DNA of 37,453 nt from a virus (Duplodnaviria; Heunggongvirae; Uroviricota; Caudoviricetes; Peduoviridae): the IMG/VR virus record IMGVR_UViG_2563366824_000006; one strand, written 5' to 3'. The position numbers and the translations under genes were made by a program. The notes under the pieces were generated by a model. That model worked only from the letters and a program-made list of their open reading frames with translations. It was not told where the DNA came from and made no database searches. Positions 1,363 to 36,139 of this stretch are shown here, in pieces. The first letter of the stretch is position 1. Each line of letters opens with the position of its first letter.

Positions 1363-1446
1363 TTAATTTCGATTATTTTTCCCGGATGGAAAATTCTTAG
1401 AAACCGATCACATACAGCTGCATTTATTAAGGTTATCATCCGTTTC

Positions 1447-1533
1447 GCTGAAAAACATAACCCATAAAATGCTAGCTGTACCAGGAACCACCTCCTTAGC
1501 CTGTGTAATCTCCCTTACACGGGCTTATTTTTT
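1447..1533 (+). ncRNA. cyaR: CyaR (RyeE) Hfq-dependent small RNA; its 3' terminator overlaps the phage att core
   Basis: Sequence gctgaaaaacataacccataaaatgctagctgtaccaggaaccacctccttagcctgtgtaatctcccttacacgggcttatttttt matches my recollection of E. coli CyaR, including the C-rich anti-SD loop (ccuccuu) and the terminator hairpin plus U-tract. Not checked against Rfam. Confidence 0.75.
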
Positions 1534-3099: not shown

Positions 3100-3578
3100 T
3101 ATCCCGCCCCCGTCATACCCGTGAATTTAGTCGCCATACTGCCAGCCTTACCGATGAGCGATTCCGCCTGTTTACCGATATCGCCATAAAGCGCGGCCAG
3201 TGATTCATCAACGCGGGTGAGCGACAGCGTAAAATCAATTTTTCGGGGTGTGCCGTCTGCAAAGAAAATACTCCCTGTTTCACTCACCCTGCTGATGACA
3301 TACATGCCGTAAATCATGCCGGTGCCATCCAGCAACGGCCACGCCCGACCTTCCTCTGCCATCAGCCTGAGCGTAGTCATCGTCAGCTTTCCGCCGGTCA
3401 GCTCGGGATAAAGCACACCGGCAAGCGTGATGTTTTCCTCGCCAACACCGAGAAACTGAAAGGCATCCCGTTTACCGATACGGGAATTTGACGGCCAGCG
3501 ATAATCTGATTCACGCTGCATGGTCTGGTGTGGCAGCGTCTGGCGCATAAAAACAAACATACCTAACGCGAGCATCAT
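3099..3578 (-). CDS. U: Tail protein U
   Basis: 159-aa ORF in the P2 position between T and D; size matches P2 gpU. Confidence 0.85.
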   Translation of the reverse strand: MMLALGMFVFMRQTLPHQTMQRESDYRWPSNSRIGKRDAFQFLGVGEENITLAGVLYPELTGGKLTMTTLRLMAEEGRAWPLLDGTGMIYGMYVISRVSETGSIFFADGTPRKIDFTLSLTRVDESLAALYGDIGKQAESLIGKAGSMATKFTGMTGAG

Positions 3579-3592
3579 TTTTCGTCACCTCC

Positions 3593-6040: not shown

Positions 6041-6460
6041 TCGTGTTTCCGCTTCGCCGGAGCGCCTTTTCGCGCCATGTGATGAGTTCGGTCAGGCTCA
6101 TGGGATACAGTTCTGATGGCGGCCAGTGAAATATCACTGCCACATCCGCCATCAGGTCATCGACCGAGAGATTTTTCGGAAACGTTACTGCACCGAGTTC
6201 GGCGACAAAAAACTGACCACCTTACCGGCCAGCGCCACAAGGTCAGGCAGTTCCAGTGCGGCGACTTCCTGCTCGGTCAGCATCGGTGCAGTCATGCGCG
6301 GCAGCACCTTAATCAGTGCATCGACTTCGGAGTTCGCGACCGCAGCCAGACTGACACCGCGCAGCGTCCCGGCATTGGGTTTCATCAGCGTGACCTGTTC
6401 GATGACCTGCTCACCACGCTTGACCGGATTGTCCAGGGTAATCACATTTTCTTTGTTCAT
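6033..6460 (-). CDS. E+E': E+E' tail assembly chaperone made by programmed -1 ribosomal frameshift
   Basis: Slippery heptamer TTTTTTG on the minus strand (6212..6206) in the zero-frame context AGT TTT TTG; I translated the -1 frame by hand and obtained FFVAELGAVTFPKNLSVDDLMADVAVIFHWPPSELYPMSLTELITWREKALRRSGNTNE, ending at a TAA (6035..6033) that overlaps the T start codon. Confidence 0.75.
6185..6460 (-). CDS. E: Tail assembly chaperone E
   Basis: 91-aa ORF immediately upstream of T, as in P2; ends ...KVVSFLSPNSVQ. Confidence 0.85.
   Translation of the reverse strand: MNKENVITLDNPVKRGEQVIEQVTLMKPNAGTLRGVSLAAVANSEVDALIKVLPRMTAPMLTEQEVAALELPDLVALAGKVVSFLSPNSVQ
6206..6212 (-). other. -1 frameshift slippery site (T TTT TTG) for E / E+E'
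   Basis: Read directly in the sequence; equivalent in principle to the lambda G/GT and P2 E/E+E' sites. Confidence 0.75.
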
Positions 6461-6516
6461 GGTTTTCTCACTTCTGAATCAGGGTTAACCGGTCAGCCTG
6501 GCTGACCGGATGAAAA

Positions 6517-7035
6517 TCACAGGCCGATATTGCGGCGGTGTTGCTCCAGCCGGTCGACGCCGTTCACCTTCTCAATCATGTTGATGGTGTCGATTTCGAC
6601 CAGCTCCTTACCGTCCAACGTCAGCCGGAAATAGGTGCAGACCACGGAGATTTTCGACTCAGTGTCTTCTCCCTGTTTCCCCTCGCCGGTGTCGATTTCT
6701 TTCTGACGTCCACGCATGACCACCTCGACGGCCACCGTTTCGCCGGTATCGTCGCGCTGGTAAGAGCCAGCAAAACGAATCGGTACGGCATCCACGCCGG
6801 TTGCGGCGTAGAGCTCCCAGATAACCGAATCCGGGAAGCCCCCGAGCGACCACTCCATTGACAGCGCATCGTCATCAAGGCCGAGGTCTACCGGTGCGCT
6901 GCCGTTCATCCCCGCACCGCGATAGTTTTCGAGCTTACGGGTCAGTTTTGGCAGCGTGACGGACTTTGCAACGCCCTGATAGCTGTAGCCGTTCAGAAAG
7001 ACGTTCATTAACTTGAGTTTGCGCGGCATTGCCAT
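6517..7035 (-). CDS. FII: Tail tube protein FII
   Basis: 172-aa ORF; position and size match P2 FII. Confidence 0.88.
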   Translation of the reverse strand: MAMPRKLKLMNVFLNGYSYQGVAKSVTLPKLTRKLENYRGAGMNGSAPVDLGLDDDALSMEWSLGGFPDSVIWELYAATGVDAVPIRFAGSYQRDDTGETVAVEVVMRGRQKEIDTGEGKQGEDTESKISVVCTYFRLTLDGKELVEIDTINMIEKVNGVDRLEQHRRNIGL

Positions 7036-7047
7036 CGCTCAGGCTCC

Positions 7048-8238
7048 TTAATTGCTGTTAACCGAAGTGACCAGATTTGCCAGGTATTTATCGGTAATAC
7101 GCTGGCGCAGGGTCAGGTTTTCAAGAGGAGGCACCGGTGTATAGTCGTAGTCGATATACAGTTTTCCGGCCTTGAGGGTTTCCGCATCGTTGGATTCTTC
7201 GCTGAACCAGCAGGTCGCATCCACGATATAGCCGTTTGTTTTCAGCTCACGGAATTTGGCATTGATGCCGTCAACGATGTCGCGAATCAGCGTTGCGGTG
7301 ATGGGCTTGTCCACCGCCCACATGTGCGCCTCAGCCATCGTGTCGGCCAGCACCTGCGCGGTGCGGGTGTAGTTTTCAAAGAGGAACAGCGGGTCATCAG
7401 AGCAGGTACGGTTACCCCAGAAGCGGAAACCGTCACGGCGAATCAGCGTTGTGACGCCTGACTCGTTAAGCAGGTCAGCATCGGTGCCGGACTCCTGCAA
7501 ATCCCAGAATACGGACGCGCTGATGCCGGTAACACCGTTCACCCCGACGTTGGACAGCGTTTTATGCCAGCCCTGCTCCTGGTCGATTTTAGCGCGCAGA
7601 CCCAGCGCACGGGCAGTGGCATACGCGGTGGCGGTGGTACTGGCGACCGTATCCCATGCGAGGAAATCCGGCCAGATGACCATCAGCTCACGCTGGCTGA
7701 AATTCTGGCGGTAGGCTTTCACCTCGGAAATGGTTTTACAGCCCCATGCGCTGATATACCCGAAAGCGCGCAGCTTCTGACAGACTGATGCCAGTGCAAC
7801 AGCCACCTCTTTGGTGTCCAGTCCCGGCACACCGAGAATACGCGGTTTAACGCCGGTTACCGACTCTGCCGCCAGCAGGGCTTTCAGTCCGGTGTACTGA
7901 CCATTTTCGTCGGTGGTGCCGATGATATTGGAAACGGTCTGCGCGAGTTTCGTTTCCTCGTCGTCGCCGGTGCCGTCTTCCACACGCACGACAACGGTGA
8001 CCGGTTTTGACTGGTCGGCGATGGCCTGCAACGATGCCGCCAGCGTGCCTTTTTTACCGGCCTTTGCAATTGCGCTCTGCACATTGGTAATCAGCACAGG
8101 TTTATTGAGGGGGAAGGTTTCCGCATCCGCATCGCTGGCCGTACAGACCATGCCGACAACGGCAGTGGATACGGTGGAAATGACGCGGGTGCCGTCGTTA
8201 ATCTCCAGCACCTGCACGCCATGATGATAGTCACTCAT
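7048..8238 (-). CDS. FI: Contractile tail sheath protein FI
   Basis: 396-aa ORF; position and size match P2 FI; GGAG Shine-Dalgarno about 9 nt upstream. Confidence 0.9.
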   Translation of the reverse strand: MSDYHHGVQVLEINDGTRVISTVSTAVVGMVCTASDADAETFPLNKPVLITNVQSAIAKAGKKGTLAASLQAIADQSKPVTVVVRVEDGTGDDEETKLAQTVSNIIGTTDENGQYTGLKALLAAESVTGVKPRILGVPGLDTKEVAVALASVCQKLRAFGYISAWGCKTISEVKAYRQNFSQRELMVIWPDFLAWDTVASTTATAYATARALGLRAKIDQEQGWHKTLSNVGVNGVTGISASVFWDLQESGTDADLLNESGVTTLIRRDGFRFWGNRTCSDDPLFLFENYTRTAQVLADTMAEAHMWAVDKPITATLIRDIVDGINAKFRELKTNGYIVDATCWFSEESNDAETLKAGKLYIDYDYTPVPPLENLTLRQRITDKYLANLVTSVNSN

Positions 8239-8330
8239 CCGTTTAACTCCGTGGTTAATGGGTGCAACTATTTTCTGTTGGGCAGTGCATGAGACGCTAT
8301 TTGACCTGGCTGGTCAGTGGATGAAACAAC
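8239..8330 (-). promoter_or_regulatory. Probable Ogr-dependent late promoter P_F region (upstream of FI)
   Basis: Position only, by analogy with P2 late-operon architecture; I found an imperfect dyad (TGG-N12-ACA around 8311..8328) but no perfect TGT-N12-ACA. Confidence 0.35.
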
Positions 8331-8361
8331 AGATAAAGAAAAGGCGGGCAATTCGCCCGCC
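8331..8361 (-). terminator. Intrinsic terminator downstream of the cargo gene, upstream of FI
   Basis: Stem ggcgggc / gcccgcc (8343-8349 / 8355-8361), followed on the minus strand by TTTTCTTTATCT. Confidence 0.55.
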
Positions 8362-8601
8362 TGTCCTGATTTGTACTCACTCATTTTCCGACTGACAATT
8401 TACATAGCCCAAACGCTATCAATTCTGACAGTCTGCTTTGAGCGAGGAGCAGACCTTCACGCTTTTCGCTGTTGAGTGACATGAATTATTAAAGAGCATT
8501 ATAAAACTTCACTTTTTCTAATTTCAATGCTTTATTAAAGTCAGCGACATTCAGGATTATCAATTCAATATTAATATACCATCAGCATTATATAAGAGGT
8601 A

Positions 8602-9606
8602 TTATGCTAACCATTTTGGATGCTCTTTATAAACATTATTAAACCACTCGGTCATTTCAGGTGAGTTCGTATCCTTTATCCAAGTTAACTCAAAGTCATC
8701 TCCCATAGATGCAAATATTGATTTCAATTGAGTTATGATTAAACCATAGTAAAATCCAAAAGTTTTTTCTTCATCCTCATTGACTAATGATTCAATATGA
8801 CAACTGAGAATAAATCGAACTCGTGCCGCCGTTGAGGGATGTGTCGATTGAAAATGTTCATGGGGTGATAAGCCATCAGAAAGTTTGAAGTAGCACAGTA
8901 TTAATAGCAATGAAAATGCAATTCCGCCTTCCTTGCTGCTATAAAAATCAAGCAAGTTATTAAGATAAGATGCCTTCTGATCAAATGCAGACTGTACATG
9001 TTTTTTTACAATATTAAGAGCAAAACCATCTGCAACTAATTCTCTTGCGTGGCTTGATATTATTTCTGCGCTATTGATTTTTTTATGTCCTAAAACATCA
9101 TCAAAGATAGTGTCAATAGATTGCTTTTTTGCTCGGTCGCCATGTTTATTAATGAAATGGCCTACTTCGTGACTAACTATAAACAGCATTAGACAATCAA
9201 GAATAAACATAAATAAGTGTGATTCGGACTCACTTTCCTCTCTTGTCTCATTGTTAAACCCAACAAATGGATTAGTAACGAGATGCAAGTCATAAAAGTT
9301 TAAATTAGTACTTTTCCCTGTTATCATCCCTGACCGAAAAATCAAGTCAGATAACTTACATAGTCTATCAAATGTGCCATAAGACATAAATATCAATTTT
9401 TCATCATAAATAATGCCGCATTGAAAATGTGAGTTGGTTGTAATGCAAAAATCCAGATCTAATTTTCGAACAGAGTCCATGTATTTACTAAAAAACGGCA
9501 GTACGAGACCATTATCTCTATCATTTATAAAATCATAGATAAGCCCCAATTGATTCTTTGAAAGAATTTCATTGATTTCATTAAGTTTTATTTCAAATCT
9601 ATCCAT
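8602..9606 (-). CDS. Cargo gene at the Z/fun position: putative zinc metallopeptidase with M48 (HtpX/Ste24)-like motifs and an N-terminal domain of about 135 aa of unknown function
   Basis: 334-aa ORF, AT-rich. Motifs read in the translation: HEVGH, then RELVADGFA (the ExxADxfA third-ligand motif of M48 peptidases), then STHPSTAARV (the THPxxxxR motif). AGAGGT Shine-Dalgarno upstream. No membrane helices evident, so probably soluble. Confidence 0.6.
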   Translation of the reverse strand: MDRFEIKLNEINEILSKNQLGLIYDFINDRDNGLVLPFFSKYMDSVRKLDLDFCITTNSHFQCGIIYDEKLIFMSYGTFDRLCKLSDLIFRSGMITGKSTNLNFYDLHLVTNPFVGFNNETREESESESHLFMFILDCLMLFIVSHEVGHFINKHGDRAKKQSIDTIFDDVLGHKKINSAEIISSHARELVADGFALNIVKKHVQSAFDQKASYLNNLLDFYSSKEGGIAFSLLLILCYFKLSDGLSPHEHFQSTHPSTAARVRFILSCHIESLVNEDEEKTFGFYYGLIITQLKSIFASMGDDFELTWIKDTNSPEMTEWFNNVYKEHPKWLA

Positions 9607-9760
9607 AATTAGAACCTCTTAATTAAAATTTTAAATAATCCGCTTAAGTAGCTATGGAGATGTAATTCTAATACTCAATCCACTCATTCAATGGAAAGAT
9701 TAGCATTACTTTAACCGCACTTTTGGACTTGACTTACTTCCCTTAAAGCTTCTGGGCACT

Positions 9761-9802
9761 ATGTTAGTAATGTCCGCTCTTCGCACGCAGCGGACATTGC
9801 TA
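9761..9802. repeat. Hairpin-containing repeat, copy 1 (15-17 bp stem, 10-nt loop)
   Basis: ttagtaatgtccgct (9763..9777) pairs with agcggacattgctaa (9788..9802) with one G-T wobble; the 42-nt segment matches 10859..10900 at 28 of 42 positions by my manual alignment. Confidence 0.6.
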
Positions 9803-9922
9803 ATAGCGGTCTATGTGAAACACGGGGAGTAGGTTAGTTTTAGCGTTAAACACAATAAGAGCACGATGAAGTATCAAAAAGGAAGCATTGCATAGATAAT
9901 TTAGGCAAAAACAGAGCTTAAA

Positions 9923-10774
9923 TTACATATCATTCGCTATCAATTCGGTTGAGAGAACCCTTGGAATCAAGCTACTTTTTGAACCATACTTTATATGCAG
10001 AAAGTCCATCATCTTTTCAACATCACTTTCATGCTCTACAATGACATATTTAATATCCTTATGTGAAAAGGGTAACCTGTCATCATCATAATATTCGTTA
10101 TATTTTCTCTTGCCATCTTGAGTTGATATATTTTTCGAAGCAGCGATCACTGGTTTTCCAATTGATTTTTCTATATCTGGAACAAATCGCCACTCCCTCT
10201 CATCTGCAAAAATATAGTTAGGTTTCTCCTGACCATTGCGTCGTTTCAAAGTTGCCTGGTAATTTTTCATATATCGCAAAGGATCTACAATTTTCTTGTA
10301 ACTAAGAATCGCCGAGTCATATTTCCGCTTTGCATTAGTTAATTGAGATGTTGTTCCTGAAGATTTTATTTCGTCCAAATGCTTTAATAACTTATTAACT
10401 TCTGCTTTTAAACGCCTAATCTCTAGATTATAATTATCAAAAACAGAAGAGTGCTTGGACATGTAAATTACTGGATTAAGTCCATTTTCGTTTGCCCAAT
10501 CTTTTGATAATCCTATGCCATAATGGCCATAACTTTCAGTATGCTGGGTAAGCTGTGTTAGCCTGATATCACAAAATGAAACCATCGGTATACCGAAATT
10601 TCTATTCGTGCTCTGGCCTTGTATAAACTCTCTAGCGAAAGAAATTCGAAAATAACTTGAGTCAAGTATCTCAAATAAGGTATCTAACTTTTCAGTAAAA
10701 TGAAACAAGGTCGTTGGGTATAAGCTACGCGACATAATGATCATCCATAATATGATGTATAAACTAAGTATCAT
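9923..10774 (-). CDS. Cargo gene at the Z/fun position: putative abortive-infection (Abi-like, possibly AbiGi-family) protein
   Basis: 283-aa ORF, AT-rich. N-terminal LFHFTEKLDTLFEIL ... GIPMVSFCDI ... YGHYGIGLSKDWANENGLNPVIY resembles Abi-family proteins as I remember them; family assignment unverified. True start may be an internal Met (ATG at 10744-10742 or 10735-10733), since the first 13 codons encode an odd hydrophobic peptide and lack a Shine-Dalgarno sequence. Confidence 0.5.
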   Translation of the reverse strand: MILSLYIILWMIIMSRSLYPTTLFHFTEKLDTLFEILDSSYFRISFAREFIQGQSTNRNFGIPMVSFCDIRLTQLTQHTESYGHYGIGLSKDWANENGLNPVIYMSKHSSVFDNYNLEIRRLKAEVNKLLKHLDEIKSSGTTSQLTNAKRKYDSAILSYKKIVDPLRYMKNYQATLKRRNGQEKPNYIFADEREWRFVPDIEKSIGKPVIAASKNISTQDGKRKYNEYYDDDRLPFSHKDIKYVIVEHESDVEKMMDFLHIKYGSKSSLIPRVLSTELIANDM

Positions 10775-10858
10775 AAATCAAGGTTATCAGTACTTACCAT
10801 ACATCAGCAAGCGGAATTAGCGATAGCGGCCTGCTCCTCATTAATCAACACTAAGAGC

Positions 10859-10900
10859 TGTTAGCTACTTCCGCTCCTGGCACAGAGCGGACTGTCAGAT
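10859..10900. repeat. Hairpin-containing repeat, copy 2 (degenerate copy of 9761..9802)
   Basis: Core tccgctc / gagcgga stem (10870-10876 / 10885-10891); an alternative 9-bp stem ggcacagag / ctctgtgcc (10879-10887 / 10910-10918). Confidence 0.55.
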
Positions 10901-16035: not shown

Positions 16036-16667
16036 AGAGGTCCCCCGGTTGTGCCGCCGCTGTCGCCGGGGTGTTTATGGGTATGCAGTACCTTACCGTT
16101 TGATGAGAGTTCACCGCCGGTGTGTTCAATGTTGCCGCGCATCGTCCCGCCCTTCTGCACTTCCAGCGTGCCGGTAGTCAGCTTGTTGGTGCAGACCACC
16201 TCCGGTGTGTCCAGGGTGATGCGAGTTGACGCTTTCACCATGACCACCGGCACCGTGGCGGTAACAGAATCAGAAGCCGTCACGCTGGCCGTTTTAATTC
16301 CGCTTGCCGTGAGCGCACTGGTTTCGGGTTCATACTCAATCACCGCCCCGTCAGGGAAACGGATGTACAGGGCATCCGCCGACGCAGACGGCGCGGGGTT
16401 ATCACCGGAATAAATCCCCGGCAGAACAAACGCCGTGTCGAGTTCGCCGCCCACGGACAGAATCAGCACCTGCTCCCCCACCGAAGGTGCCCACCATGTG
16501 CGTGAACGTCCGGCACGATGGGTCAGCCACTGAAGCCAGTCAGTGCACATGCCGCCGGTCTGCACACGGCAGCGACCGGCTTTAAGGTTGGTTTCGACGA
16601 CAAGGCCAGTACGAATCATGTTGCGCAGTGCGCGCGCGAGTTCCTGAATATTTGCGAGAGTGTTCAT
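16032..16667 (-). CDS. V: Baseplate spike protein V
   Basis: 211-aa product from the Met of MNTLANIQELARALRNMIR... (ATG confirmed at 16667..16665); matches P2 gpV from memory. The ORF-track start at 16685 is not an ATG. Confidence 0.85.
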   Translation of the reverse strand: MNTLANIQELARALRNMIRTGLVVETNLKAGRCRVQTGGMCTDWLQWLTHRAGRSRTWWAPSVGEQVLILSVGGELDTAFVLPGIYSGDNPAPSASADALYIRFPDGAVIEYEPETSALTASGIKTASVTASDSVTATVPVVMVKASTRITLDTPEVVCTNKLTTGTLEVQKGGTMRGNIEHTGGELSSNGKVLHTHKHPGDSGGTTGGPL

Positions 16668-16750
16668 GCATGTGAGATTGCACAATATATAAAAGTTATG
16701 CTATCTGGATTCATTTGTAGAACCACCAGACAACATTCAAGGAGAGCGTA
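16668..16750. promoter_or_regulatory. Divergent promoter region: probable late promoter P_V (minus) and the promoter of the opposite-strand cargo gene (plus)
   Basis: 83-bp AT-rich spacer between two divergent start codons; no perfect TGT-N12-ACA Ogr dyad found (best candidates have N11 or N14 spacing). Confidence 0.35.
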
Positions 16751-17536
16751 ATGGTCAGCTATAATGTGACTAATGTGTGGGAGCTAATCGTCTTGTATCT
16801 TTTGGTCTTTGTAGTATTAGCATTTTTTAGCTTTGGTAAAAGTAACCTTATGAGGCTTATTGCACATTATTTCAAATTTGGATATTCAGATAAAAAATTA
16901 AAAAGACTGGACCGCGAGTGGCGCGACATTCAACTATTTAAAATAATTAACGGAATCAATGTATCAGGCATCAAAGATGTGAAAATGATACAGCAGGGGT
17001 TGATTGATGGAAAACTAAAAACATCGGATTTTTTCCTTACTCGCTTCTGGGGAGACATAACAGAACCGCCATGCATCACAAAAACAATGAGTGCAGTCCT
17101 GGCCGGAATTCTTTATATTACCTTCGCATGTTGCATACACAACGAGCAATCTGCCATAGTAGAGGATGCCATAGCCATACCATATAAAAATATGATGTAC
17201 CATGTTTATAATGACAAGGTTCTTTTGTTCTCCGACAATAAAACAGATAAGTTCTATAAAGCTTTTAGCATTGCCGATTGCAAGAGACTGCAGAACACTT
17301 TTGTAACAGACACACTTCCTGCAATCGCCTGCAATAAGCTCTTACAGCTAAACGAGGAGGACTCCAAATGGTTAAGTCAGGAGATTAAAGATAATAACAG
17401 CCACAGAAAAACATTATTAATAATATCCCTCGTCTATTTCACTTCAGGTCTGGTTATACTTCTGTCATATACAAAATTCCTTTACGCCAATAAAAAAGTT
17501 GTAGAATACAAATCATCAAATAAAAACCACTCATAA
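16751..17536 (+). CDS. Cargo gene at the orf30 position: membrane protein of unknown function (three predicted transmembrane helices)
   Basis: 261-aa ORF on the opposite strand to the flanking late genes; AT-rich and Lys/Asn/Ile-rich; hydrophobic segments near residues 10-28, 112-128 and 230-248; GGAG Shine-Dalgarno at 16741-16744. Confidence 0.6.
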   Translation: MVSYNVTNVWELIVLYLLVFVVLAFFSFGKSNLMRLIAHYFKFGYSDKKLKRLDREWRDIQLFKIINGINVSGIKDVKMIQQGLIDGKLKTSDFFLTRFWGDITEPPCITKTMSAVLAGILYITFACCIHNEQSAIVEDAIAIPYKNMMYHVYNDKVLLFSDNKTDKFYKAFSIADCKRLQNTFVTDTLPAIACNKLLQLNEEDSKWLSQEIKDNNSHRKTLLIISLVYFTSGLVILLSYTKFLYANKKVVEYKSSNKNHS

Positions 17537-23808: not shown

Positions 23809-23981
23809 TGTCAGGAGTCCTGAATAGTGAGTAGAGGAGTCACATGTCGGCATCAGTTTCCCGACGATGCGCATCCTCCGCCATCAGTCCCGGATGGCTT
23901 ATCACTGACACAACAGCACCTTAGCGAATCGCGGGGCGCGACTCAGTAGCCTTGCCGTGTATTCATCACGGCGAGGTATTC
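23809..23981. promoter_or_regulatory. Divergent late promoter region (P_O leftward, P_P rightward)
   Basis: 173-bp spacer between divergent O and P start codons, as in P2; assigned by position, no clean Ogr dyad identified by eye. Confidence 0.4.
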
Positions 23982-25754
23982 ATGACCATCACCACAGACA
24001 CCACTCTTTTACACGACCCGCGTCGTCAGGCGGCGCTGCTGTACTGGCAGGGGTTTTCCGTGCCGCAGATTGCCGCCATGTTGCAGATGAAACGCCCGAC
24101 GGTGCAGAGCTGGAAACAGCGCGACGGCTGGGACAGTGTTGCCCCCATCAGCCGTGTCGAAATGAGCCTGGAAGCGCGGCTGACCCAGCTCATCATCAAA
24201 CCGCAGAAAACCGGCGGTGACTTCAAGGAAATTGACCTTCTGGGACGCCAGATTGAACGACTGGCACGGGTAAACCGTTACAGTCAGACCGGCAACGAGG
24301 CAGACCTTAATCCGAACGTCGCTAACCGCAACAAAGGCGGGCGTCGCAAACCGAAAAAGAATTTTTTCAGTGACGAGGCCATCGAAAAGCTGGAGCAGAT
24401 TTTCTTTGAGCAGTCTTTCGACTATCAGTTGCACTGGTATCGCGCCGGGCTTGAGCACCGCATCCGCGATATCCTGAAATCCCGCCAGATTGGCGCGACG
24501 TTTTATTTTTCCCGCGAGGCGCTGCTGCGTGCCCTGAAAACCGGTCATAACCAGATTTTTCTGTCGGCCAGTAAAACGCAGGCGTATGTATTCCGCGAAT
24601 ACATCATCGCCTTTGCCCGGCTGGTTGACGTTGACCTGACCGGTGACCCGATTGTCCTGGGCAATAACGGCGCAAAACTGATTTTTCTCGGCACCAACTC
24701 CAACACCGCGCAGAGCCATAACGGCGACCTGTACGTCGACGAGATTTTCTGGATCCCGAATTTTCAGGTACTGCGTAAGGTGGCATCAGGTATGGCCTCA
24801 CAGAGTCACCTGCGCTCGACCTATTTCTCCACCCCGTCCACGCTGGCGCACGACGCCTACCCGTTCTGGTCGGGTGAACTGTTCAACCGGGGACGCGCCA
24901 GCGCCGCCGAACGCGTGGAAATCGATGTCAGTCATAACGCCCTTGCCGGAGGTCTTCTCTGTGCGGACGGCCAGTGGCGACAGATTGTCACCATTGAGGA
25001 CGCCCTGAAAGGCGGCTGCACGCTGTTTGACATTGAGCAGCTCAAACGCGAAAACAGCGCCGACGATTTTAAAAACCTGTTCATGTGTGAATTTGTTGAC
25101 GACAAGGCATCGGTGTTCCCGTTCGAGGAGCTGCAACGCTGCATGGTCGACACGCTGGAAGAATGGGAAGACTATGCGCCGTTTGCCGCCAATCCGTTCG
25201 GCTCCCGCCCGGTCTGGATTGGTTACGACCCGTCACACCGTGGCGACAGCGCCGGATGCGTGGTACTGGCACCGCCGGTGGTGGCCGGTGGCAAATTCAG
25301 AATACTTGAGCGTCACCAGTGGAAAGGCATGGACTTTGCCACTCAGGCGGAATCCATCCGCAAACTCACCGAAAAATACAACGTCGAATACATCGGTATT
25401 GATGCCACCGGCCTCGGTGTCGGCGTGTTCCAGCTCGTGCGCTCGTTCTATCCCGCCGCGCGCGATATCCGCTACACGCCGGAAATGAAAACCGCAATGG
25501 TGCTCAAGGCAAAAGACGTCATCCGCCGTGGCTGTCTGGAATATGACGTCAGCGCCACCGACATCACCAGCTCGTTTATGGCTATCCGCAAGACCATGAC
25601 CAGCAGCGGACGCAGCGCCACCTATGAGGCCAGCCGCAGCGAGGAAGCCAGCCACGCCGACCTCGCCTGGGCGACCATGCACGCCCTGTTAAATGAGCCA
25701 CTCACCGCCGGTATCAGCACCCCGCTGACATCCACCATTCTGGAGTTTTACTGA
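23982..25754 (+). CDS. P: Terminase large subunit (ATPase/nuclease) P
   Basis: 590-aa product from the Met of MTITTDTTLLHDPRRQAALLYWQGF...; P2 gpP length; stop overlaps the Q start (ATGA). Confidence 0.9.
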   Translation: MTITTDTTLLHDPRRQAALLYWQGFSVPQIAAMLQMKRPTVQSWKQRDGWDSVAPISRVEMSLEARLTQLIIKPQKTGGDFKEIDLLGRQIERLARVNRYSQTGNEADLNPNVANRNKGGRRKPKKNFFSDEAIEKLEQIFFEQSFDYQLHWYRAGLEHRIRDILKSRQIGATFYFSREALLRALKTGHNQIFLSASKTQAYVFREYIIAFARLVDVDLTGDPIVLGNNGAKLIFLGTNSNTAQSHNGDLYVDEIFWIPNFQVLRKVASGMASQSHLRSTYFSTPSTLAHDAYPFWSGELFNRGRASAAERVEIDVSHNALAGGLLCADGQWRQIVTIEDALKGGCTLFDIEQLKRENSADDFKNLFMCEFVDDKASVFPFEELQRCMVDTLEEWEDYAPFAANPFGSRPVWIGYDPSHRGDSAGCVVLAPPVVAGGKFRILERHQWKGMDFATQAESIRKLTEKYNVEYIGIDATGLGVGVFQLVRSFYPAARDIRYTPEMKTAMVLKAKDVIRRGCLEYDVSATDITSSFMAIRKTMTSSGRSATYEASRSEEASHADLAWATMHALLNEPLTAGISTPLTSTILEFY

Positions 25755-26788
25755 TGAGTAAGAAAAAAGGGAAAACACCGCAGCCAGCGGTGAAAACAAT
25801 GACTGCCAGCGCCCCGAAAATGGAGGCATTCACCTTTGGCGAGCCGGTGCCGGTACTCGACCGCCGTGACATTCTGGATTATGTCGAGTGCATCAGTAAC
25901 GGCAGATGGTATGAGCCACCAATCAGCTTTACCGGTCTGGCAAAAAGCCTGCGTGCTGCCGTGCATCACAGCTCCCCGATTTACGTCAAACGCAATATTC
26001 TGGCCTCGACATTTATCCCGCATCCGTGGCTTTCCCAGCAGGATTTCAGCCGCTTTGTGCTGGATTTTCTGGTGTTCGGTAATGCGTTTCTGGAAAAGCG
26101 ATACAGCACCACCGGTAAGGTCATCAGACTGGAAACCTCACCGGCAAAATATACCCGCCGTGGTGTGGAGGAGGATGTTTACTGGTGGGTGCCGTCCTTC
26201 AACGAGCCGACACCTTTCACGCCCGGCTCCGTGTTTCATCTGCTGGAGCCGGATATTAATCAGGAGCTGTACGGCCTGCCGGAATATCTCAGCGCCCTTA
26301 ACTCTGCCTGGCTGAATGAGTCGGCCACGCTGTTCCGCCGCAAGTATTACGAAAACGGCGCACATGCCGGATACATCATGTACGTCACTGATGCCGTGCA
26401 GGATCGCAACGATATCGAAATGCTCCGCGAAAACATGGTGAAGTCGAAAGGCCGCAACAACTTTAAAAATCTGTTTCTCTATGCCCCACAGGGGAAAGCC
26501 GACGGCATTAAAATTATCCCGCTCAGTGAAGTCGCAACGAAGGACGATTTTTTTAATATCAAAAAAGCCAGCGCCGCTGACCTGCTGGACGCGCACCGCA
26601 TCCCCTTTCAGTTGATGGGCGGCAAGCCGGAGAACGTCGGGTCGCTGGGTGATATTGAGAAAGTGGCAAAGGTCTTTGTCCGCAATGAGCTTATCCCGCT
26701 ACAGGACAGGATCCGCGAGATAAACGGCTGGCTCGGTCAGGAGGTCATCCGCTTTAAAAACTACTCACTGGACACTGACAACGGCTGA
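25754..26788 (+). CDS. Q: Portal protein Q
   Basis: 344-aa ORF; P2 position and size. Confidence 0.9.
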   Translation: MSKKKGKTPQPAVKTMTASAPKMEAFTFGEPVPVLDRRDILDYVECISNGRWYEPPISFTGLAKSLRAAVHHSSPIYVKRNILASTFIPHPWLSQQDFSRFVLDFLVFGNAFLEKRYSTTGKVIRLETSPAKYTRRGVEEDVYWWVPSFNEPTPFTPGSVFHLLEPDINQELYGLPEYLSALNSAWLNESATLFRRKYYENGAHAGYIMYVTDAVQDRNDIEMLRENMVKSKGRNNFKNLFLYAPQGKADGIKIIPLSEVATKDDFFNIKKASAADLLDAHRIPFQLMGGKPENVGSLGDIEKVAKVFVRNELIPLQDRIREINGWLGQEVIRFKNYSLDTDNG

Positions 26789-26957: not shown

Positions 26958-26976
26958 GTGCTTTCCCCGCCTCGCC
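26958..26976. other. cos site (19-nt cohesive-end sequence)
   Basis: gtgctttccccgcctcgcc is the reverse complement of GGCGAGGCGGGGAAAGCAC, the P2 cohesive end as I remember it; located just beyond Q as in P2. Confidence 0.8.
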
Positions 26977-27262
26977 CGCCCGCTTAATGGGGCGGTTTTA
27001 ATGCACTTGCATGAATGGCCTAAAGTACGCCAGTTCTGACACTGCAAAGTTAGAAAATGCCTAACAGGTACATGCAAAATGATGCATCAAATGAATTCAT
27101 ACTGAAATAACCCCCAACCACATAGCTAAGCATCCACATCTTTACATCTAACTCACTAAATTCTCTTGAATAAATCAAAAAGTTAGGTTAGATCTCTATC
27201 GTTGAGGAAGGCAACCTCGAACACTTAAGGCTAAATATAAAAAGAATAAAAAGAGGGATAAA

Positions 27263-29470
27263 ATGAAATTAAAACTCAAAAACGTAACAAGCTATCATAA
27301 AGAATATTTTACTGAGTTAGATTTATCCAAAAAAATAAACATATTGTATGGACAAAATGGTTGTGGAAAATCTACCATATCAAATTATTTTTACAATCCT
27401 AAAGACACCGCCTATAAGGAATGTGTATGCGAACCCATCGATAATTATCGAACCCTAGTCTACAACTCAAAATATATAGAAGATAATTTTTATAATGCAA
27501 AAGAGCAAAAAGGTATATTTACCCTCAGTCAAAAAAATGCAGAAATTGAAAAAATACTATCTGAAAAAGAAGAGCTAAACAAATCACTAGCACATCAGCA
27601 TAAAGAAAAAAAAGAATTTATCGAAAAACTCCATGAAGCGAAAAACAAAAAAGAGCAAGAATGCATAAATTCCATATGGAATAAGACCAAAGACATAAGA
27701 AGTTCAGAATTAAAACAATTAATGAAAGGTCAAATAGGAAGCAAAGCCACTTTCTATTACCATCTAAAAAAGTATACTCCACAAACTGATATTGATATAA
27801 AATCATTAATACAATCTTATAGCAAACTTCTCGAGTTTAAAGGAAAAGAAATACCTCTGATAACTCCTTATAAAGGATATGTTTTATCTGAAGAAACTCA
27901 AAAAACATTATCCACACCAATTATTGACTCTAGCAACAGCTATTTATCTGAAGCAATAAAAGAGCTACAAAATATTGATTGGATTAAACAAGGCAAAGAG
28001 CTATATTTAAATGGAGAAATTTGTCCATTTTGCCAAAGGGACACAATAGATGATAATTTTATTAAAGCCATTGAATCTATCTTTGATGAAACATACTCAA
28101 GAAAAGTAGATCAAATACAACAAATAAAACTATCTTATGATAATGCCATTAAAAATCATCATGAAGAAATAAAGAGTAACATTTTATCATGTGAGGTGAT
28201 AAACCAAGACGAAAAAGATAAAAGCCTTTCATATGTTAAGGCATTAGAAACTATTGCAGAAAAAAACATCAAATTATTGGATAATAAAATAGAGAATCCA
28301 TCTATAAGCATTGTGCTGGAGTTTGAAAAGTCGATAGAGGAAAAACTATTAGAAGATATAGAACAATACAACAAAAAAATTAACGAGTTCAATGACAAAG
28401 TAAAAAGATTTAATAATAGCGAAATAGATATTCGCGAAAAGATGTGGGCAGCAATCAGAGACTTATGTAGCGCGGAATTTGAAATACTATCAGACTGCGA
28501 AAGAAACTTTCAAGAAAAATATGAAAACGCTGCATCCTTCATGCAGGAAATAAAAAGAAAAGAAGAGATCAACACAAATGAAATCAATGAACTAAGAAAT
28601 AAAACATCAAGTGTAGATGCAACAATAGATGCAATAAACTCACGACTTAAATTTCTTGGCATCTCTGGTTTTAGCATTGATAAACACGCCGAACTCAAAG
28701 ATAAGTATATAATATCCCGCGATGGAAACAATAGAAAACAAGATGTATATCGGTCATTAAGCGAAGGTGAAAAAACATTAATAACGTTTCTATATTTTTT
28801 AGAATGTTGCAAGGGTAAAACAAATGAAAATGATACTGATATGCGTGATAAACTCATAGTTATAGATGATCCTATATCAAGTTTATCTCAAAACTATGTT
28901 TTCGACATAGCATCCATGATCCATCATGACATAATTGAAAAAGGCATTTCATCAAAAATAATAATCCTCACCCATAATCTTTATTTCTTCCATGAGTTAA
29001 TAAAACTCGCCTCTAAAAAAGGAATAAATTTTAAACGTGACTACTTTCTTGGCAGAATAAACAAAAATGAATTTAGCACCATTAGTGCTATAGATAAAAA
29101 AAGTGTGCAAAATGAATACCAATCCCTTTGGCAAGTATTAAAAGATGCAAAAGAGAAAAAAATCAACAAAATAATAATCCCCAATATTATGAGAAATATA
29201 CTTGAGTATTACTTTGCATTTGTTCATAGAACTGACGCATTAGAGGCAAAGCTTACTGAATTAACAAATGATGAAAATAACAGCCATTTCCGTGCCTTTT
29301 ACAGATATATAAACAGAGGCTCTCACTCCGACGCAATAAACATAACAGATATGGGCGATATTGAACCTGAGAAATACTTAGAACTCTTGCACAAAATATT
29401 CAGAATGACTGGTGATGAGAAACATTACTTAACAATGATGGGTGAAGAAGAGGTAAATGTTACCGCTTAG
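27263..29470 (+). CDS. Cargo gene at the tin/old position: RloC/PrrC-like ABC-type ATPase with Rad50-like CxxC zinc hook and putative C-terminal HEPN/anticodon-nuclease domain
   Basis: 735-aa ORF, very AT-rich. Walker A GQNGCGKST (27347..27373); long coiled-coil region with CPFC (28022..28033) at its midpoint; signature-like LSEGEK; Walker B LIVIDDP; H-loop ILTHNL; C-terminal R-x3-E (MRNILEYY) and R-x6-H (RYINRGSH) motifs. Confidence 0.55.
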   Translation: MKLKLKNVTSYHKEYFTELDLSKKINILYGQNGCGKSTISNYFYNPKDTAYKECVCEPIDNYRTLVYNSKYIEDNFYNAKEQKGIFTLSQKNAEIEKILSEKEELNKSLAHQHKEKKEFIEKLHEAKNKKEQECINSIWNKTKDIRSSELKQLMKGQIGSKATFYYHLKKYTPQTDIDIKSLIQSYSKLLEFKGKEIPLITPYKGYVLSEETQKTLSTPIIDSSNSYLSEAIKELQNIDWIKQGKELYLNGEICPFCQRDTIDDNFIKAIESIFDETYSRKVDQIQQIKLSYDNAIKNHHEEIKSNILSCEVINQDEKDKSLSYVKALETIAEKNIKLLDNKIENPSISIVLEFEKSIEEKLLEDIEQYNKKINEFNDKVKRFNNSEIDIREKMWAAIRDLCSAEFEILSDCERNFQEKYENAASFMQEIKRKEEINTNEINELRNKTSSVDATIDAINSRLKFLGISGFSIDKHAELKDKYIISRDGNNRKQDVYRSLSEGEKTLITFLYFLECCKGKTNENDTDMRDKLIVIDDPISSLSQNYVFDIASMIHHDIIEKGISSKIIILTHNLYFFHELIKLASKKGINFKRDYFLGRINKNEFSTISAIDKKSVQNEYQSLWQVLKDAKEKKINKIIIPNIMRNILEYYFAFVHRTDALEAKLTELTNDENNSHFRAFYRYINRGSHSDAINITDMGDIEPEKYLELLHKIFRMTGDEKHYLTMMGEEEVNVTA

Positions 29471-29697
29471 GCCGCATATTACCGATTCGGGTAAGAACGA
29501 CGGTGCTTACGCACCGTCTCCCAGCGCCCAAAGCGGTAGCGGTTGTACTGTCGTACATTCACTAACCTTAACATGAGATTATCTCCATGCTGGCACCATT
29601 GTTGCCAATGGCAGCCTTTATACCCTTTGTATAAAGCTAATACTAAGAGCATTGCTAGGTAGATTTCCCAAGCGGTAACGTGGGTATTCTAAGACAA

Positions 29698-31986
29698 TTA
29701 CTTAAAAAGATCAAAGCCACTAAAAAACTGCTTCCACTCACCACTTATTGGATATATAAACTTTCGTCCGTCAAACTTTACCGTCGCGCCACGCGCCAGC
29801 GCCTCAAGCTCCCATCGCTGCGGCCTGATACCGTTCTGAGCAAGGTCAACGCGGATACGGTTGATTTGCAATCGTTCCGACCGGGTCAGTCTGGCAGATG
29901 GTGCCATTTCATACTGTTTTAACGGGCTTCCGTTTCTCTGCTGACGATTTGGTGTTCTCAGCCCGTGTTTTAATGCGCCCCTGAGCGCCCTCACGACCTC
30001 CGGGTCATTCCATTCGATAACACCGTCATCAACCAGATTAAGCACTGCTGCGGCGTGCTCAGAAGGCGTGGGAGCCGGTAACGAAGTATTACCGCCGGTG
30101 AGCTTTCCACAGTTATTGACAGGACTCCGAGGCGCGGCGATGCCGCTTTTTAAAGTCAAAGGCTCAACGACCGGAACTTTCGGCACAATGCGCCAGTCCG
30201 TCGTTCTGGTGATATGAATATGGCGCGCGCCGAGATGCGGCGCGTAAATGCCGACCACTCTCTCGACCTCTTCCTCGTACTCGTTAACGTCATCCGACGG
30301 GCTACGGGCGACCCTGACAGTCTGACAATCGCGCGGGACATTTGCCCCACCCTGCGCGCTGATATACAACGCAAAATCACCACTGTCTGCGGCGGCGCGT
30401 GCAGCCTCGACGCGCTCGTCAAACTCATCAGCAATGCTGACGCCGCGCGGCAATTTGCGTAGTTCACGGTAAGCCCCCATTGTCGGCAGACCAACCGTTT
30501 TAAATTGCGGGATGCGCCACGTTGACGCCCATGCAGTAACAGCCGCGGCAGTATCTTTCAGAGGTCTGCCGGTATCGTTATCGAGCTGACCATCCAGTGC
30601 ATAGCCGTCGATGTTTTTTGAGATGTATTTCGCGATATACCCCGCAGCACCGCCCCGATTAAGGTGTTTTGCCTGAAAACGGTTTCGCGCGGCTCCTCTT
30701 TCGTCGCCATCCTCTTTGAGCGCATAGCGACGCATGATTTCGATAATCTGGTTACGCTGGCGCGGATTACAAAAAAGCATCATATGCCAGTGCGGCGTTC
30801 CGTCGTGGTGTGGCTCGACGACACGCAAACCGTAGACCTGTAAATCATTATCCTTGAATGCCGTGCGCATCAGGCTCCAGATACGGCAGAGATAACGCTG
30901 CGCATCCTTTGGATTAAATGCCTCATCGTTCCAGCCGTGATTTAGCTGGACGGTTTTACTTTCGCCTTTTCTGACCTGACGTGTCGGGTGATACTTTGAC
31001 GGCGCGGTCAGCGTGATAAACATCCCTACATCACCCTCTGCTGCGGCGTAACGCTCAATACCGGCAATGGTGTTCATCAGCTCCATCCGGCGAATTTCAG
31101 GATTAGAAATACTGCCCATCACCTTACTGATAAGGTCGATGCGCTCGCCGGTTTCCCTGTTTTCGAGATCACACGATTTAAGAAATTCCAGGTTTGCCTG
31201 GCGGCGTGCACGCACATCACGAATGGCATGTTTACTGGCATAAGGAGAACGGTCTTTATTGACCTCCCCGACAGCAATCAGTAACGCCTCATGCCAGCGC
31301 ATACGCTGGCCTTTAAACTGATGAGTCCACCACTCATCGTTAAACAGACGGGCAATGGCAGAATATGCCTGCCTCGTGGTCATCTGCCCTTTACGGTATT
31401 TTTTCCAGTAGAGAGGGGAAATATTGAAAGCACGTGCAGCGCCAGCAACATGACCATAGAGGTGAGCCTGCGCCTCATCCGTAAACAGCGATTCTTTTTC
31501 GCCATGCGCATCCACCCAGGCATCGCTGAGTTCCTCATACATCATGAAAAGCTGCGATGAGATACGGGCAGCAAACTTTTTCAGCTCCTTGTCATTCATT
31601 CCCGGCAGGCGCGCATAGTGGTCACGCTCTGCCAGAAACAGTAACGACGCGTCGGTGTTCATTTCATGGCGCTGATTCACACGCTCAATGCGCGGCCATA
31701 AACGACGCTGAAAAGTGGATGTGAGGAAATAAAACCCGTGCACCGGGCTTTTATTGCGCCGGATGTAGTCATAGCGTGAAGTAAACAGCGAGCGCAAAAA
31801 GTAAGGCAGGCGGTTAATCGTGGATAAAACACCTTGCACCTGACGCATCTCGTCACGTGTAAGGGGTCTTTCGCGCCCGACAGCCTCGCGTGGCGCGTTC
31901 CATGCATAAGCACCGGTAAACGCCTTACCGGTGCCTGCAGCAAATGCTGACGGAGGGACAAAACGCCCGGAGGCTTTAACGGCCAT
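29698..31986 (-). CDS. A: Rolling-circle replication initiator A
   Basis: 762-aa product from the internal Met (MAVKASGRFVPPSAFAAGTGK...); matches P2 gpA from memory. Confidence 0.88.
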   Translation of the reverse strand: MAVKASGRFVPPSAFAAGTGKAFTGAYAWNAPREAVGRERPLTRDEMRQVQGVLSTINRLPYFLRSLFTSRYDYIRRNKSPVHGFYFLTSTFQRRLWPRIERVNQRHEMNTDASLLFLAERDHYARLPGMNDKELKKFAARISSQLFMMYEELSDAWVDAHGEKESLFTDEAQAHLYGHVAGAARAFNISPLYWKKYRKGQMTTRQAYSAIARLFNDEWWTHQFKGQRMRWHEALLIAVGEVNKDRSPYASKHAIRDVRARRQANLEFLKSCDLENRETGERIDLISKVMGSISNPEIRRMELMNTIAGIERYAAAEGDVGMFITLTAPSKYHPTRQVRKGESKTVQLNHGWNDEAFNPKDAQRYLCRIWSLMRTAFKDNDLQVYGLRVVEPHHDGTPHWHMMLFCNPRQRNQIIEIMRRYALKEDGDERGAARNRFQAKHLNRGGAAGYIAKYISKNIDGYALDGQLDNDTGRPLKDTAAAVTAWASTWRIPQFKTVGLPTMGAYRELRKLPRGVSIADEFDERVEAARAAADSGDFALYISAQGGANVPRDCQTVRVARSPSDDVNEYEEEVERVVGIYAPHLGARHIHITRTTDWRIVPKVPVVEPLTLKSGIAAPRSPVNNCGKLTGGNTSLPAPTPSEHAAAVLNLVDDGVIEWNDPEVVRALRGALKHGLRTPNRQQRNGSPLKQYEMAPSARLTRSERLQINRIRVDLAQNGIRPQRWELEALARGATVKFDGRKFIYPISGEWKQFFSGFDLFK

Positions 31987-32251
31987 ATGAGCCAAAAGCC
32001 TCTGAACAACGCTTGCTGAGTCGCTCAACCTGCGCGTTTAAATCAGCAAAAGACTTTGCGCTTCCGGTCAGAATATCGTGATGCATCAGGCCGGAAACGA
32101 GCTGGTTTAATTTCGGGTAATAACCAACCACCGCCAGCCATTCCTGACCGGCGTTTTTACCGCTTTCCGCTCTCTTTTTCTCGTGGAGAATAAACTGAAA
32201 GCTGTCACTGGTAACGACATAACGTTCGCCAATTTCAATACGAATACTCAT
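31976..32251 (-). CDS. Hypothetical protein (P2 orf83 position)
   Basis: 91-aa ORF in the small-ORF cluster between B and A. Confidence 0.6.
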   Translation of the reverse strand: MSIRIEIGERYVVTSDSFQFILHEKKRAESGKNAGQEWLAVVGYYPKLNQLVSGLMHHDILTGSAKSFADLNAQVERLSKRCSEAFGSYGR

Positions 32252-34429: not shown

Positions 34430-34544
34430 CAATTCATCGTGAATATATTCATCACAAGTGCCTACTATTGGTGGCTAAATTTCAGCCACCACGAAAAAAG
34501 CGATTAGTAGTCGCAAAAAAACACACCACTCGGAGGGTTTTCTG

Positions 34545-35558
34545 ATGGCAATCAAAAAACTCGATGATGGTCGATATGAAGTGGACATCCGCCCTACTGG
34601 ACGTAATGGAAAACGCATCCGTAGGAAGTTTGATAAGAAAAGCGAAGCTGTCGCTTTCGAGAAATACACGTTGTACAACCACCACAATAAAGAATGGCTA
34701 TCAAAACCAACAGACAAGCGACGTCTGTCGGAGCTGACACAGATCTGGTGGGATTTAAAGGGTAAACACGAAGAGCATGGGAAATCTAATCTTGGAAAAA
34801 TTGAAATCTTCACAAAAATAACGAATGACCCATGCGCATTTCAAATTACGAAATCGCTTATCAGCCAGTACTGCGCCACCCGAAGAAGTCAGGGTATTAA
34901 ACCTTCGAGTATCAATCGTGATTTAACATGTATTAGCGGCATGTTTACAGCCCTGATTGAAGCGGAGTTATTCTTTGGTGAGCACCCTATCAGAGGGACA
35001 AAAAGGCTTAAGGAGGAAAAACCAGACACAGGCTATCTCACGCAGGAAGAAATTGCCTTACTGCTTGCTGCTCTTGACGGCGACAACAAAAAGATTGCGA
35101 TTCTTTGCCTGAGTACTGGAGCACGTTGGGGAGAAGCAGCTCGTTTGAAAGCAGAAAATATCATCCATAACCGCGTCACGTTTGTTAAAACGAAAACAAA
35201 CAAACCACGCACCGTCCCGATCTCAGAGGCTGTTGCCAAAATGATCGCGGATAACAAACGAGGTTTTTTATTCCCTGATGCTGATTACCCTCGCTTCAGA
35301 CGAACAATGAAAGCAATAAAACCGGATTTGCCAATGGGGCAAGCCACACATGCACTAAGGCACAGCTTTGCCACTCATTTCATGATTAATGGAGGAAGTA
35401 TTATCACGCTACAACGGATACTAGGTCACACGCGGATTGAGCAAACTATGGTTTACGCTCATTTTGCGCCAGAGTACCTTCAGGACGCCATTTCTCTTAA
35501 TCCGCTAAGAGGTGGTACTGAGGCCGAGAGTGTCCACACAGTGTCCACAGTAGAGTAA
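34545..35558 (+). CDS. int: Tyrosine integrase
   Basis: 337-aa ORF with C-terminal R...HxxR...Y catalytic signature (HALRHSF...Y); matches P2 Int in size and position, adjacent to att. Confidence 0.9.
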   Translation: MAIKKLDDGRYEVDIRPTGRNGKRIRRKFDKKSEAVAFEKYTLYNHHNKEWLSKPTDKRRLSELTQIWWDLKGKHEEHGKSNLGKIEIFTKITNDPCAFQITKSLISQYCATRRSQGIKPSSINRDLTCISGMFTALIEAELFFGEHPIRGTKRLKEEKPDTGYLTQEEIALLLAALDGDNKKIAILCLSTGARWGEAARLKAENIIHNRVTFVKTKTNKPRTVPISEAVAKMIADNKRGFLFPDADYPRFRRTMKAIKPDLPMGQATHALRHSFATHFMINGGSIITLQRILGHTRIEQTMVYAHFAPEYLQDAISLNPLRGGTEAESVHTVSTVE

Positions 35559-35637
35559 CGTTTAAGGGCTTTCAGTGGTAATTTATGCCGCTCAAACCCG
35601 CATTGTACCGTTGAAAGCCCCTACTGGTGACACCCTA

Positions 35638-35665
35638 AATCTCCCTTACACGGGCTTATTTTTTA
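35638..35665. repeat. Prophage attachment-site core, int-proximal copy (28-bp direct repeat)
   Basis: Exact copy of 1507..1534; the flanking sequence diverges immediately on both sides. Confidence 0.85.
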
Positions 35666-35821
35666 TGCATAAGCCGTATCCTGGTCACCGTCTTCCATTG
35701 ACCACATCGATAGAATCCCCCTTCATAACACGATGCCTTTCACGTAACGGCATCGTGCTCGTACAGATTCCGGCTACGCACAACCAGAACGCGCATGTTT
35801 GACGCTTACCAAAAAATATTC

Positions 35822-36139
35822 TCACTCTCCACATTTGAATGTCAGACGAGCGACGCCATGTAATCCTGCACCTTCTGTCTTCAGGTCAACTATCTGCATT
35901 TTTTTGCCCTGAGTAACACAGAAATGAGCTGCATCATTTTTTACTATATTTTCTGCACCAGAAATTCTGCCCCTGGCTAAAGAAGCTTCGGCTTCGGTGT
36001 AGTATTGGTTATCGAGTTTACGCTGAATATTACTTTTATATGCAAGACCAAATTTACCGATACTTGTCTCATCATTATGTACAGCACACCCAGACATAAG
36101 AAAAACACTAATTAATGATATAGCAGCTATCTTTTTCAT
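35822..36139 (-). CDS. yegR: Lipoprotein YegR (host gene)
   Basis: 105-aa product from the internal Met (MKKIAAISLISVFLMSGC..., signal peptide with lipobox); recognised as E. coli YegR. Confidence 0.8.
   Translation of the reverse strand: MKKIAAISLISVFLMSGCAVHNDETSIGKFGLAYKSNIQRKLDNQYYTEAEASLARGRISGAENIVKNDAAHFCVTQGKKMQIVDLKTEGAGLHGVARLTFKCGE

Follow-up and report, generated by a model that had tools for sequence, protein, structure and literature searches.

An RloC-like ATPase with a putative C-terminal anticodon nuclease domain is the single cargo gene of the cos-proximal hotspot in a P2-like prophage

In this study, we performed a computational analysis of IMG/VR virus record IMGVR_UViG_2563366824_000006, a stretch of 37,453 nucleotides (hereafter the window) holding a P2-like prophage, and concentrated on one gene at positions 27263 to 29470, referred to here as the rloC-like gene. 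An earlier note, made from the letters of the window alone, had described a lone AT-rich gene for a protein of 735 amino acids (aa) located between cos and replication gene A and oriented oppositely to A, and had read its product as an RloC/PrrC-like ATPase with a zinc hook and a putative HEPN anticodon nuclease. The open reading frame (ORF), the base composition and the neighbouring genes agreed with that description of the locus. The ORF begins with ATG, and the GC content across 27001-29500 was 0.29-0.34 (about 30% for the gene itself) against 0.53-0.58 in both flanks. To the left lie terminase gene P (23952-25754) and, as the direct neighbour, portal gene Q (25754-26788, plus strand), which is followed by a terminator-like hairpin; the right neighbour is replication gene A (29698-32028, minus strand). 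The features of the locus are given below.

26958-26976, minus strand: P2-type cos 19-mer, anchoring the hotspot on the left; identical to GGCGAGGCGGGGAAAGCAC, for which 0 matches would be expected by chance.
27015-29733, no strand: low-GC cargo island of about 2.7 kb; P2-like homology breaks off at about 27014-27016 and restarts at 29734.
27253-27257, plus strand: Shine-Dalgarno GAGGG, read from the sequence, 5 nucleotides before the ATG.
27263-29470, plus strand: rloC-like gene, an ORF with Pfam AAA_13 and PADLOC PDC-S06 matches; its protein is WP_047656954.1.
27599-27606, plus strand: A8 homopolymer within the rloC-like gene; A7 in NZ_AP041814, the closest complete genome.

The 19-mer is that of the P2 cos. 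P2-like homology was absent from about 27015 to 29733, and the island is therefore about 2.7 kb long with a single gene; it occupies the cos-proximal Q-A hotspot of the prophage. Neither a partner gene nor a tRNA gene nor an Rfam RNA was found in or beside it, and a promoter scan upstream of the rloC-like ATG returned no site above background. A 57-aa ORF at 29479-29652 (minus strand), left unannotated by RefSeq, was treated as spurious. In addition, the last codons of gene A, about 11 of them (29698-29733), lay outside the backbone homology to other P2-like phages, which places the right recombination boundary of the hotspot within the 3' end of A; judging from this comparison, cargo swaps at the hotspot would also exchange the C-terminal tail of A.

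Profile searches agreed with the RloC/PrrC-like reading. Pfam AAA_13, a family presumably built around RloC, aligned end to end (aa 16-713 on positions 9-712 of a 713-position model, E = 4.7e-104), and the PADLOC model PDC-S06 (PDLC04886) matched aa 2-728 on positions 4-724 of 727 (E = 1.4e-254), whereas the PADLOC PrrC model covered only aa 434-716 (E = 5.6e-16). NCBIfam held nothing specific to the protein, and its PHROG was of "unknown function". Homologs were mainly enterobacterial proteins of about 730-745 aa, together with more distant ones of about 800 aa, and two relatives carried the Joint Genome Institute (JGI) name "wobble nucleotide-excising tRNase". The named Geobacillus and Acinetobacter RloC proteins and PrrC were not reached in a profile search of a 5.8-billion-protein database.

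All of the motifs quoted in the earlier note were found in the translation (aa 30-37, 254-257, 499-503, 531-536, 569-572, 644-648 and 681-688). We assessed their conservation in two alignments, one with 29 sequences and identities as low as 18% and a second with 44 sequences, the joint range ending at 15-18% identity, and combined this with AlphaFold2 (AF2) models. The features within the protein are as follows.

27350-27373, plus strand: Walker A (P-loop) GQNGCGKS, aa 30-37; motif read, conserved in homologs.
27530-28657, plus strand: helical (coiled-coil-like) insert, aa about 90-465, which splits the ABC head; from AF2 helices and Foldseek.
28022-28033, plus strand: CPFC, putative zinc hook, aa 254-257; C254 and C257 invariant.
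28757-28771, plus strand: ABC signature LSEGE, aa 499-503; L499, S500, G502 and E503 invariant.
28853-28873, plus strand: Walker B and D-loop LIVIDDP, aa 531-537; D535, D536, P537 and S540 invariant.
28967-28978, plus strand: switch (linchpin) His in LTHN, aa 569-572; H571 invariant.
29096-29467, plus strand: C-terminal all-helical domain, aa about 612-735, a putative PrrC/RloC-type HEPN anticodon nuclease; from AF2 and the AAA_13 C-terminus.
29192-29206, plus strand: RNILE, Arg644-x3-Glu648, putative first and second triad residues; R644 invariant, as is N641.
29303-29326, plus strand: RYINRGSH, aa 681-688, an HEPN-like R-x6-H with Ser687-His688 as putative third triad residue; S687 and H688 invariant.

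First, the protein has the head of a Rad50/SMC-type ABC ATPase. In the Walker A motif, G30, N32, G35, K36 and T38 were kept in every one of the 27 aligned sequences that cover it. The full-length AF2 model (predicted local distance difference test, pLDDT, 80.7; predicted template modelling score, pTM, 0.44) ran from an N-terminal beta/alpha head lobe through the helical insert and the C-lobe of the head to a seven-helix C-terminal domain. Foldseek comparison of this model with the PDB ranked Rad50 at the top (7zr1, E = 2e-7), followed by SMC heads, Lamassu LmuB, retron ATPases, PtuA and AriA, and these Rad50/SMC matches, which included the coiled coils of those proteins, confirmed the type of the head; sequence and profile searches of the PDB returned only SMC, Rad50 and AriA heads. 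No RloC or PrrC structure was present among the PDB entries searched by sequence, profile or fold.

Second, the head is split by a helical insert of about 375 aa with the CPFC close to its centre. Both cysteines were invariant in all 29 homologs down to 18% identity, and the flanking W240, G244, F256 and F274 were conserved as well. Helices were modelled at 90-141, 277-309, 315-344, 356-381, 383-401 and 403-447, and the CPFC fell in a lower-confidence turn (pLDDT 53-72 around the hook). Thus a long helical insert with a central CPFC pair, as the note had proposed, was borne out, but aa 143-250 were modelled as short broken helices rather than as one continuous coil. The structure prediction that the note had suggested likewise yielded the Rad50/SMC-like head, the insert and an all-helical C-terminus, whereas fold searches did not confirm HEPN.

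Third, the C-terminal domain is where the putative nuclease would reside. Modelled separately, it formed seven helices (pLDDT 77.5, pTM 0.72). Searched by itself, it aligned with the C-terminus of AAA_13 (model positions 595-712, E = 5.4e-19), and nested fragments of the protein raised the PrrC score from 44.1 to 49.4 to 54.8 bits, so that the domain contributes about 10.7 colinear bits. The domain alone matched neither the PADLOC PrrC model nor the Pfam HEPN families, and its fold search was non-diagnostic. Among 1.84 billion proteins, 485 representative clusters carry the domain, nearly all of them 715-790 aa long and with the domain at the extreme C-terminus.

Conservation within the domain was concentrated at a few positions. 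N641, R644, S687 and H688 were invariant, and they were the same four invariant C-terminal positions in the 44-sequence alignment; E648 was Glu in 27 of 29 sequences and Asp in the other two. Since the domain is otherwise poorly conserved, these residues indicate an active site. RloC has been defined by the triad Arg-X3-Glu-X36-52-His, often with Ser before the His (Davidov and Kaufmann, 2008; PMC2610378), and the spacing Arg644-x3-Glu648-x39-Ser687-His688 lies inside this rule; the invariant columns nearly coincide with the functional residues published for RloC. From its sequence, the R-x6-H stretch R681...H688 would correspond to the Rx4-6H motif of HEPN domains, whose core consists of four up-down helices, with R681 being Arg in 21 and Lys in three of the 29 sequences, so that this pattern is only partly conserved.

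The features shared with GkaRloC of Geobacillus kaustophilus and AbaRloC of Acinetobacter baylyi are a single polypeptide, the ABC motifs, a helical insert that is centred on a CxxC and separates Walker A from the signature, the C-terminal Arg-x3-Glu-x36-52-(Ser)His and a stand-alone gene with no linked restriction-modification (R-M) silencer; the difference lies in length, 735 aa here versus 804 aa. RloC genes are rarely R-M-linked and are often the lone cargo of an integrated phage or mobile element (Klaiman, 2012). As judged at the sequence level, the protein combines what marks an RloC, namely the ABC motifs, central CXXC, triad, AAA_13 membership and stand-alone gene, and we regard its membership of the RloC family as highly probable. 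This assignment was made through the published definition and the family profiles.

PrrC shares with the protein the ABC C-lobe and a C-terminal nuclease domain colinear with the PrrC model, and the same triad logic. In contrast, PrrC has about 400 aa and lacks the coiled-coil/zinc-hook insert, and it sits inside the type Ic hsd (EcoprrI) operon that silences it, whereas the rloC-like gene lies between portal gene and cos on one side and gene A on the other; the 43 kb of NZ_AP041814 that are homologous to about 6800-37453 of the window plus the downstream host flank contain no annotated hsd gene. Matches of about 400 aa to the C-terminal domain were considered as PrrC-type proteins and rejected: four were fragments, P0216 was a member of the family, and none was a true PrrC. 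P0216 (396 aa, a metagenomic representative) retains Walker A, signature, Walker B, switch His and R-x3-E...SH without the helical/CxxC insert of about 330 aa, and is thus a PDC-S06/RloC-like family member with the layout of a PrrC. It either arose by deletion or links the PrrC and RloC architectures.

The closest parallel in setting is WP_000423308 of E. coli APEC O1, which occupies the same Q-A hotspot of a P2-like prophage in the same orientation, likewise as lone cargo gene. It has 738 instead of 735 aa, is 58% identical over the full length and keeps all motifs, but at the nucleotide level the allele differs: identity is about 67% in the N-terminal half and about 81% from the 3' part of the gene into the flank next to it, and the upstream regions are unrelated. 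Klaiman (2012), from Kaufmann's laboratory, mentions an "E. coli APECO1 RloC", and WP_000423308 is probably this protein, because blastn gave a single homolog in NC_008563. Prophage-borne ABC-HEPN proteins related to PrrC/RloC have also been described, with E. coli APECO1_4465 as prototype (Anantharaman et al., 2013), and WP_000423308 possibly belongs to this group. In the survey of Rousset et al. (2022), AAA_13 "RloC-like" is system #5 of the P2 cos-proximal hotspot, ranking fifth by frequency, at 420 of 18,150 P2 loci (Table S5B), and WP_000423308 is among the proteins in Table S5A; eight P2-hotspot systems were cloned there, the AAA_13 RloC-like one not being among them. The cargo class is therefore already catalogued, and the gene in the window is another allele of it.

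Taken together, AAA_13, the PrrC model and the invariant hook and triad residues support an RloC/PrrC-like ATPase with a putative zinc hook as hotspot cargo. We consider that the gene encodes a stand-alone anticodon nuclease of the RloC family, the sole cargo of the hotspot, which would defend by cleaving tRNA, with a probability of about 0.72 for this statement as a whole; its mechanistic part draws on analogy with the RloC proteins of Geobacillus and Acinetobacter (Davidov, 2008; Klaiman, 2012, 2014), and it is from these that we infer trigger, target, zinc binding and defence phenotype. In such a mechanism, the lysogen would make a low level of the protein, whose C-terminal nuclease would be held silent by the zinc-hook/ATPase switch. 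On superinfection, the ATPase heads would bind ends or replication intermediates of the incoming phage DNA, and ATP hydrolysis would free the nuclease to cut one tRNA or a small number of tRNAs in the anticodon loop. The wobble nucleotide might be excised, so that phage tRNA-repair enzymes could not mend the tRNA. Translation would halt and the infection would abort, protecting the lysogenic population and, through it, the prophage.

The alternative that survives best keeps the RloC family and architecture and changes the function: the target may be mRNA, rRNA or different tRNAs, the trigger may be a phage protein, or the gene may serve the prophage chiefly for addiction or competition rather than for abortive infection. 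The RloC-length relatives of about 800 aa share just 19-31% identity with the protein, PADLOC models the clade apart as PDC-S06, which it still lists as a candidate defence family, and in a 2025 preprint an E. coli PDC-S06 ATPase called by PADLOC is absent from the authors' DefenseFinder-based labels. Moreover, the characterised RloCs already differ among themselves in their tRNA targets, wobble-position cleavage of tRNA-Lys, tRNA-Glu or tRNA-Gln being reported for GkaRloC and AbaRloC. Yet the invariant residues are exactly the hook cysteines and the RloC/PrrC triad, the domains follow in identical order, and the locus shows no sign of a partner or sensor protein; such a change of function thus appears a secondary possibility, to be kept in mind. 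Somewhat less likely still, the P2-hotspot clade (PDC-S06, about 735 aa) may be a functionally distinct RloC branch adapted to life in a prophage. The Rad50-like head could, for instance, sense the free or cos-type ends of competitor phages and spare P2 replication, the tRNA set could be another one, and slippage in the A8 tract might switch a costly toxin on and off.

It seems improbable that the protein is a non-nucleolytic SMC/Rad50-like ATPase for tethering, repair or partition, with regulatory or DNA-binding C-terminal helices. The full-length fold resembles only Rad50, SMC, LmuB and AriA, the C-terminal fold search was non-diagnostic, and the names in use point the same way ("AAA family ATPase" in RefSeq, "DNA repair ATPase" for one UniRef relative). 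However, this reading leaves the four invariant residues and the near-invariant E648 of a poorly conserved domain to be accounted for, and the PrrC match runs colinearly through that domain in a gene placed at a known defence hotspot.

Marginally less plausible is decaying, non-functional cargo, for which the distribution of the gene supplied the evidence on both sides. Among 5,426 complete E. coli genomes, 13 carried the allele (at least 99% nucleotide identity), 74 a full-length homolog by blastn and 126 any match at all, always on the chromosome, and none of the deposited phage genomes in the collection searched carries the allele. The copy in NZ_AP041814, otherwise identical, has A7 at the A8 tract and is annotated as a frameshifted pseudogene, which reflects either slippage or a sequencing error, and the copy in NZ_CP146687 is gutted by an IS5 insertion with an internal deletion. 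Two independent inactivations are compatible with a cost of carriage and are too few to argue from. On the other hand, the window copy is intact, its protein is the exact representative of cluster P0001, intact variants of the identical 735-aa length are found on hundreds of contigs of E. coli, E. albertii and Shigella, and the catalytic residues are conserved family-wide. Cluster P0003 (559 aa, 176 members), considered as a frequent N-terminal disruption, was rejected as such, its members being mostly contig-edge partials.

Finally, an OLD-family nuclease (ATPase plus Toprim), which would be a diverged homolog of the phage-exclusion gene old of P2 and which the earlier note had allowed for as a Toprim domain it might have missed, shares locus, strand and an N-terminal ABC-type ATPase with the gene, but this identity is effectively refuted: Toprim, OLD and GajA profiles of Pfam and PADLOC had no match at E <= 1, AAA_13 spans aa 16-713 and so leaves no room for a further domain, and the C-terminus is all-helical with an HEPN-like motif, Toprim being an alpha/beta fold.

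More distant relatives of the protein were encoded on other mobile elements or close to R-M genes, and a distant one of 799 aa has a type III R-M module and Abi_C as neighbours. In addition, relatives of about 40% identity (clusters P0053 and P0047; loci L003-L005 of E. coli and L006 of Pantoea ananatis, genes at about 2180-8190) immediately follow, in the same orientation, a conserved block of genes for HxsD, two radical-SAM enzymes and two small proteins. The block together with an RloC-like ATPase was seen in two mobile elements, namely a smpB-adjacent integrase island and a relaxase/resolvase/ParB element, and may constitute a multi-gene system.

The host prophage is P2-like and lies between the CyaR small RNA (sRNA) and yegR/yegS. 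CyaR/RyeE sRNA marks the left prophage junction (1445-1530, plus strand; Rfam, 100.7 bits), and the integrase followed by yegR the right end (about 34544-36138, coordinates transferred from the annotated homologous region of NZ_AP041814); the whole prophage is therefore inside the window. The note had called it otherwise P2-identical, which did not hold: the backbone matched Peduovirus phages at about 97-98% identity across just 80% of positions 1-25000, in three pieces, and at least two further cargo islands are present (about 8300-10900 and about 16500-17500). The second island (GC 32-34%) occupies the P2 Z/fun position between sheath gene FI and fibre-assembly gene G, with its genes at 8602-10774 on the minus strand. 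One encodes an AbiGi-family protein of 283 aa (PADLOC 9.8e-42, Pfam 7.4e-31), whose mate is not AbiGii; it is an M48-like metallopeptidase of 334 aa with an HEVGH motif (22.6 bits in Pfam), and the pair may represent a variant AbiG-type system. The third low-GC spot, which is the position of P2 orf30, is flanked by baseplate gene V and a gene for virion morphogenesis and holds a 261-aa ORF (16751-17536, plus strand), a "hypothetical protein" in RefSeq with no Pfam or PADLOC match.

RloC is frequently cited as a defence system. Among Creative-Commons PubMed Central papers and bioRxiv preprints, we found no anti-phage or tRNase assay for the E. coli PDC-S06 clade, nor a phage-protection assay for RloC in general. 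A compact, single-gene E. coli RloC in a P2 lysogen would thus be a convenient and tractable system for a direct test of RloC in phage defence, and it could address whether nucleases of the RloC type protect against phages, what triggers them, and how wobble excision fares against phage tRNA repair.

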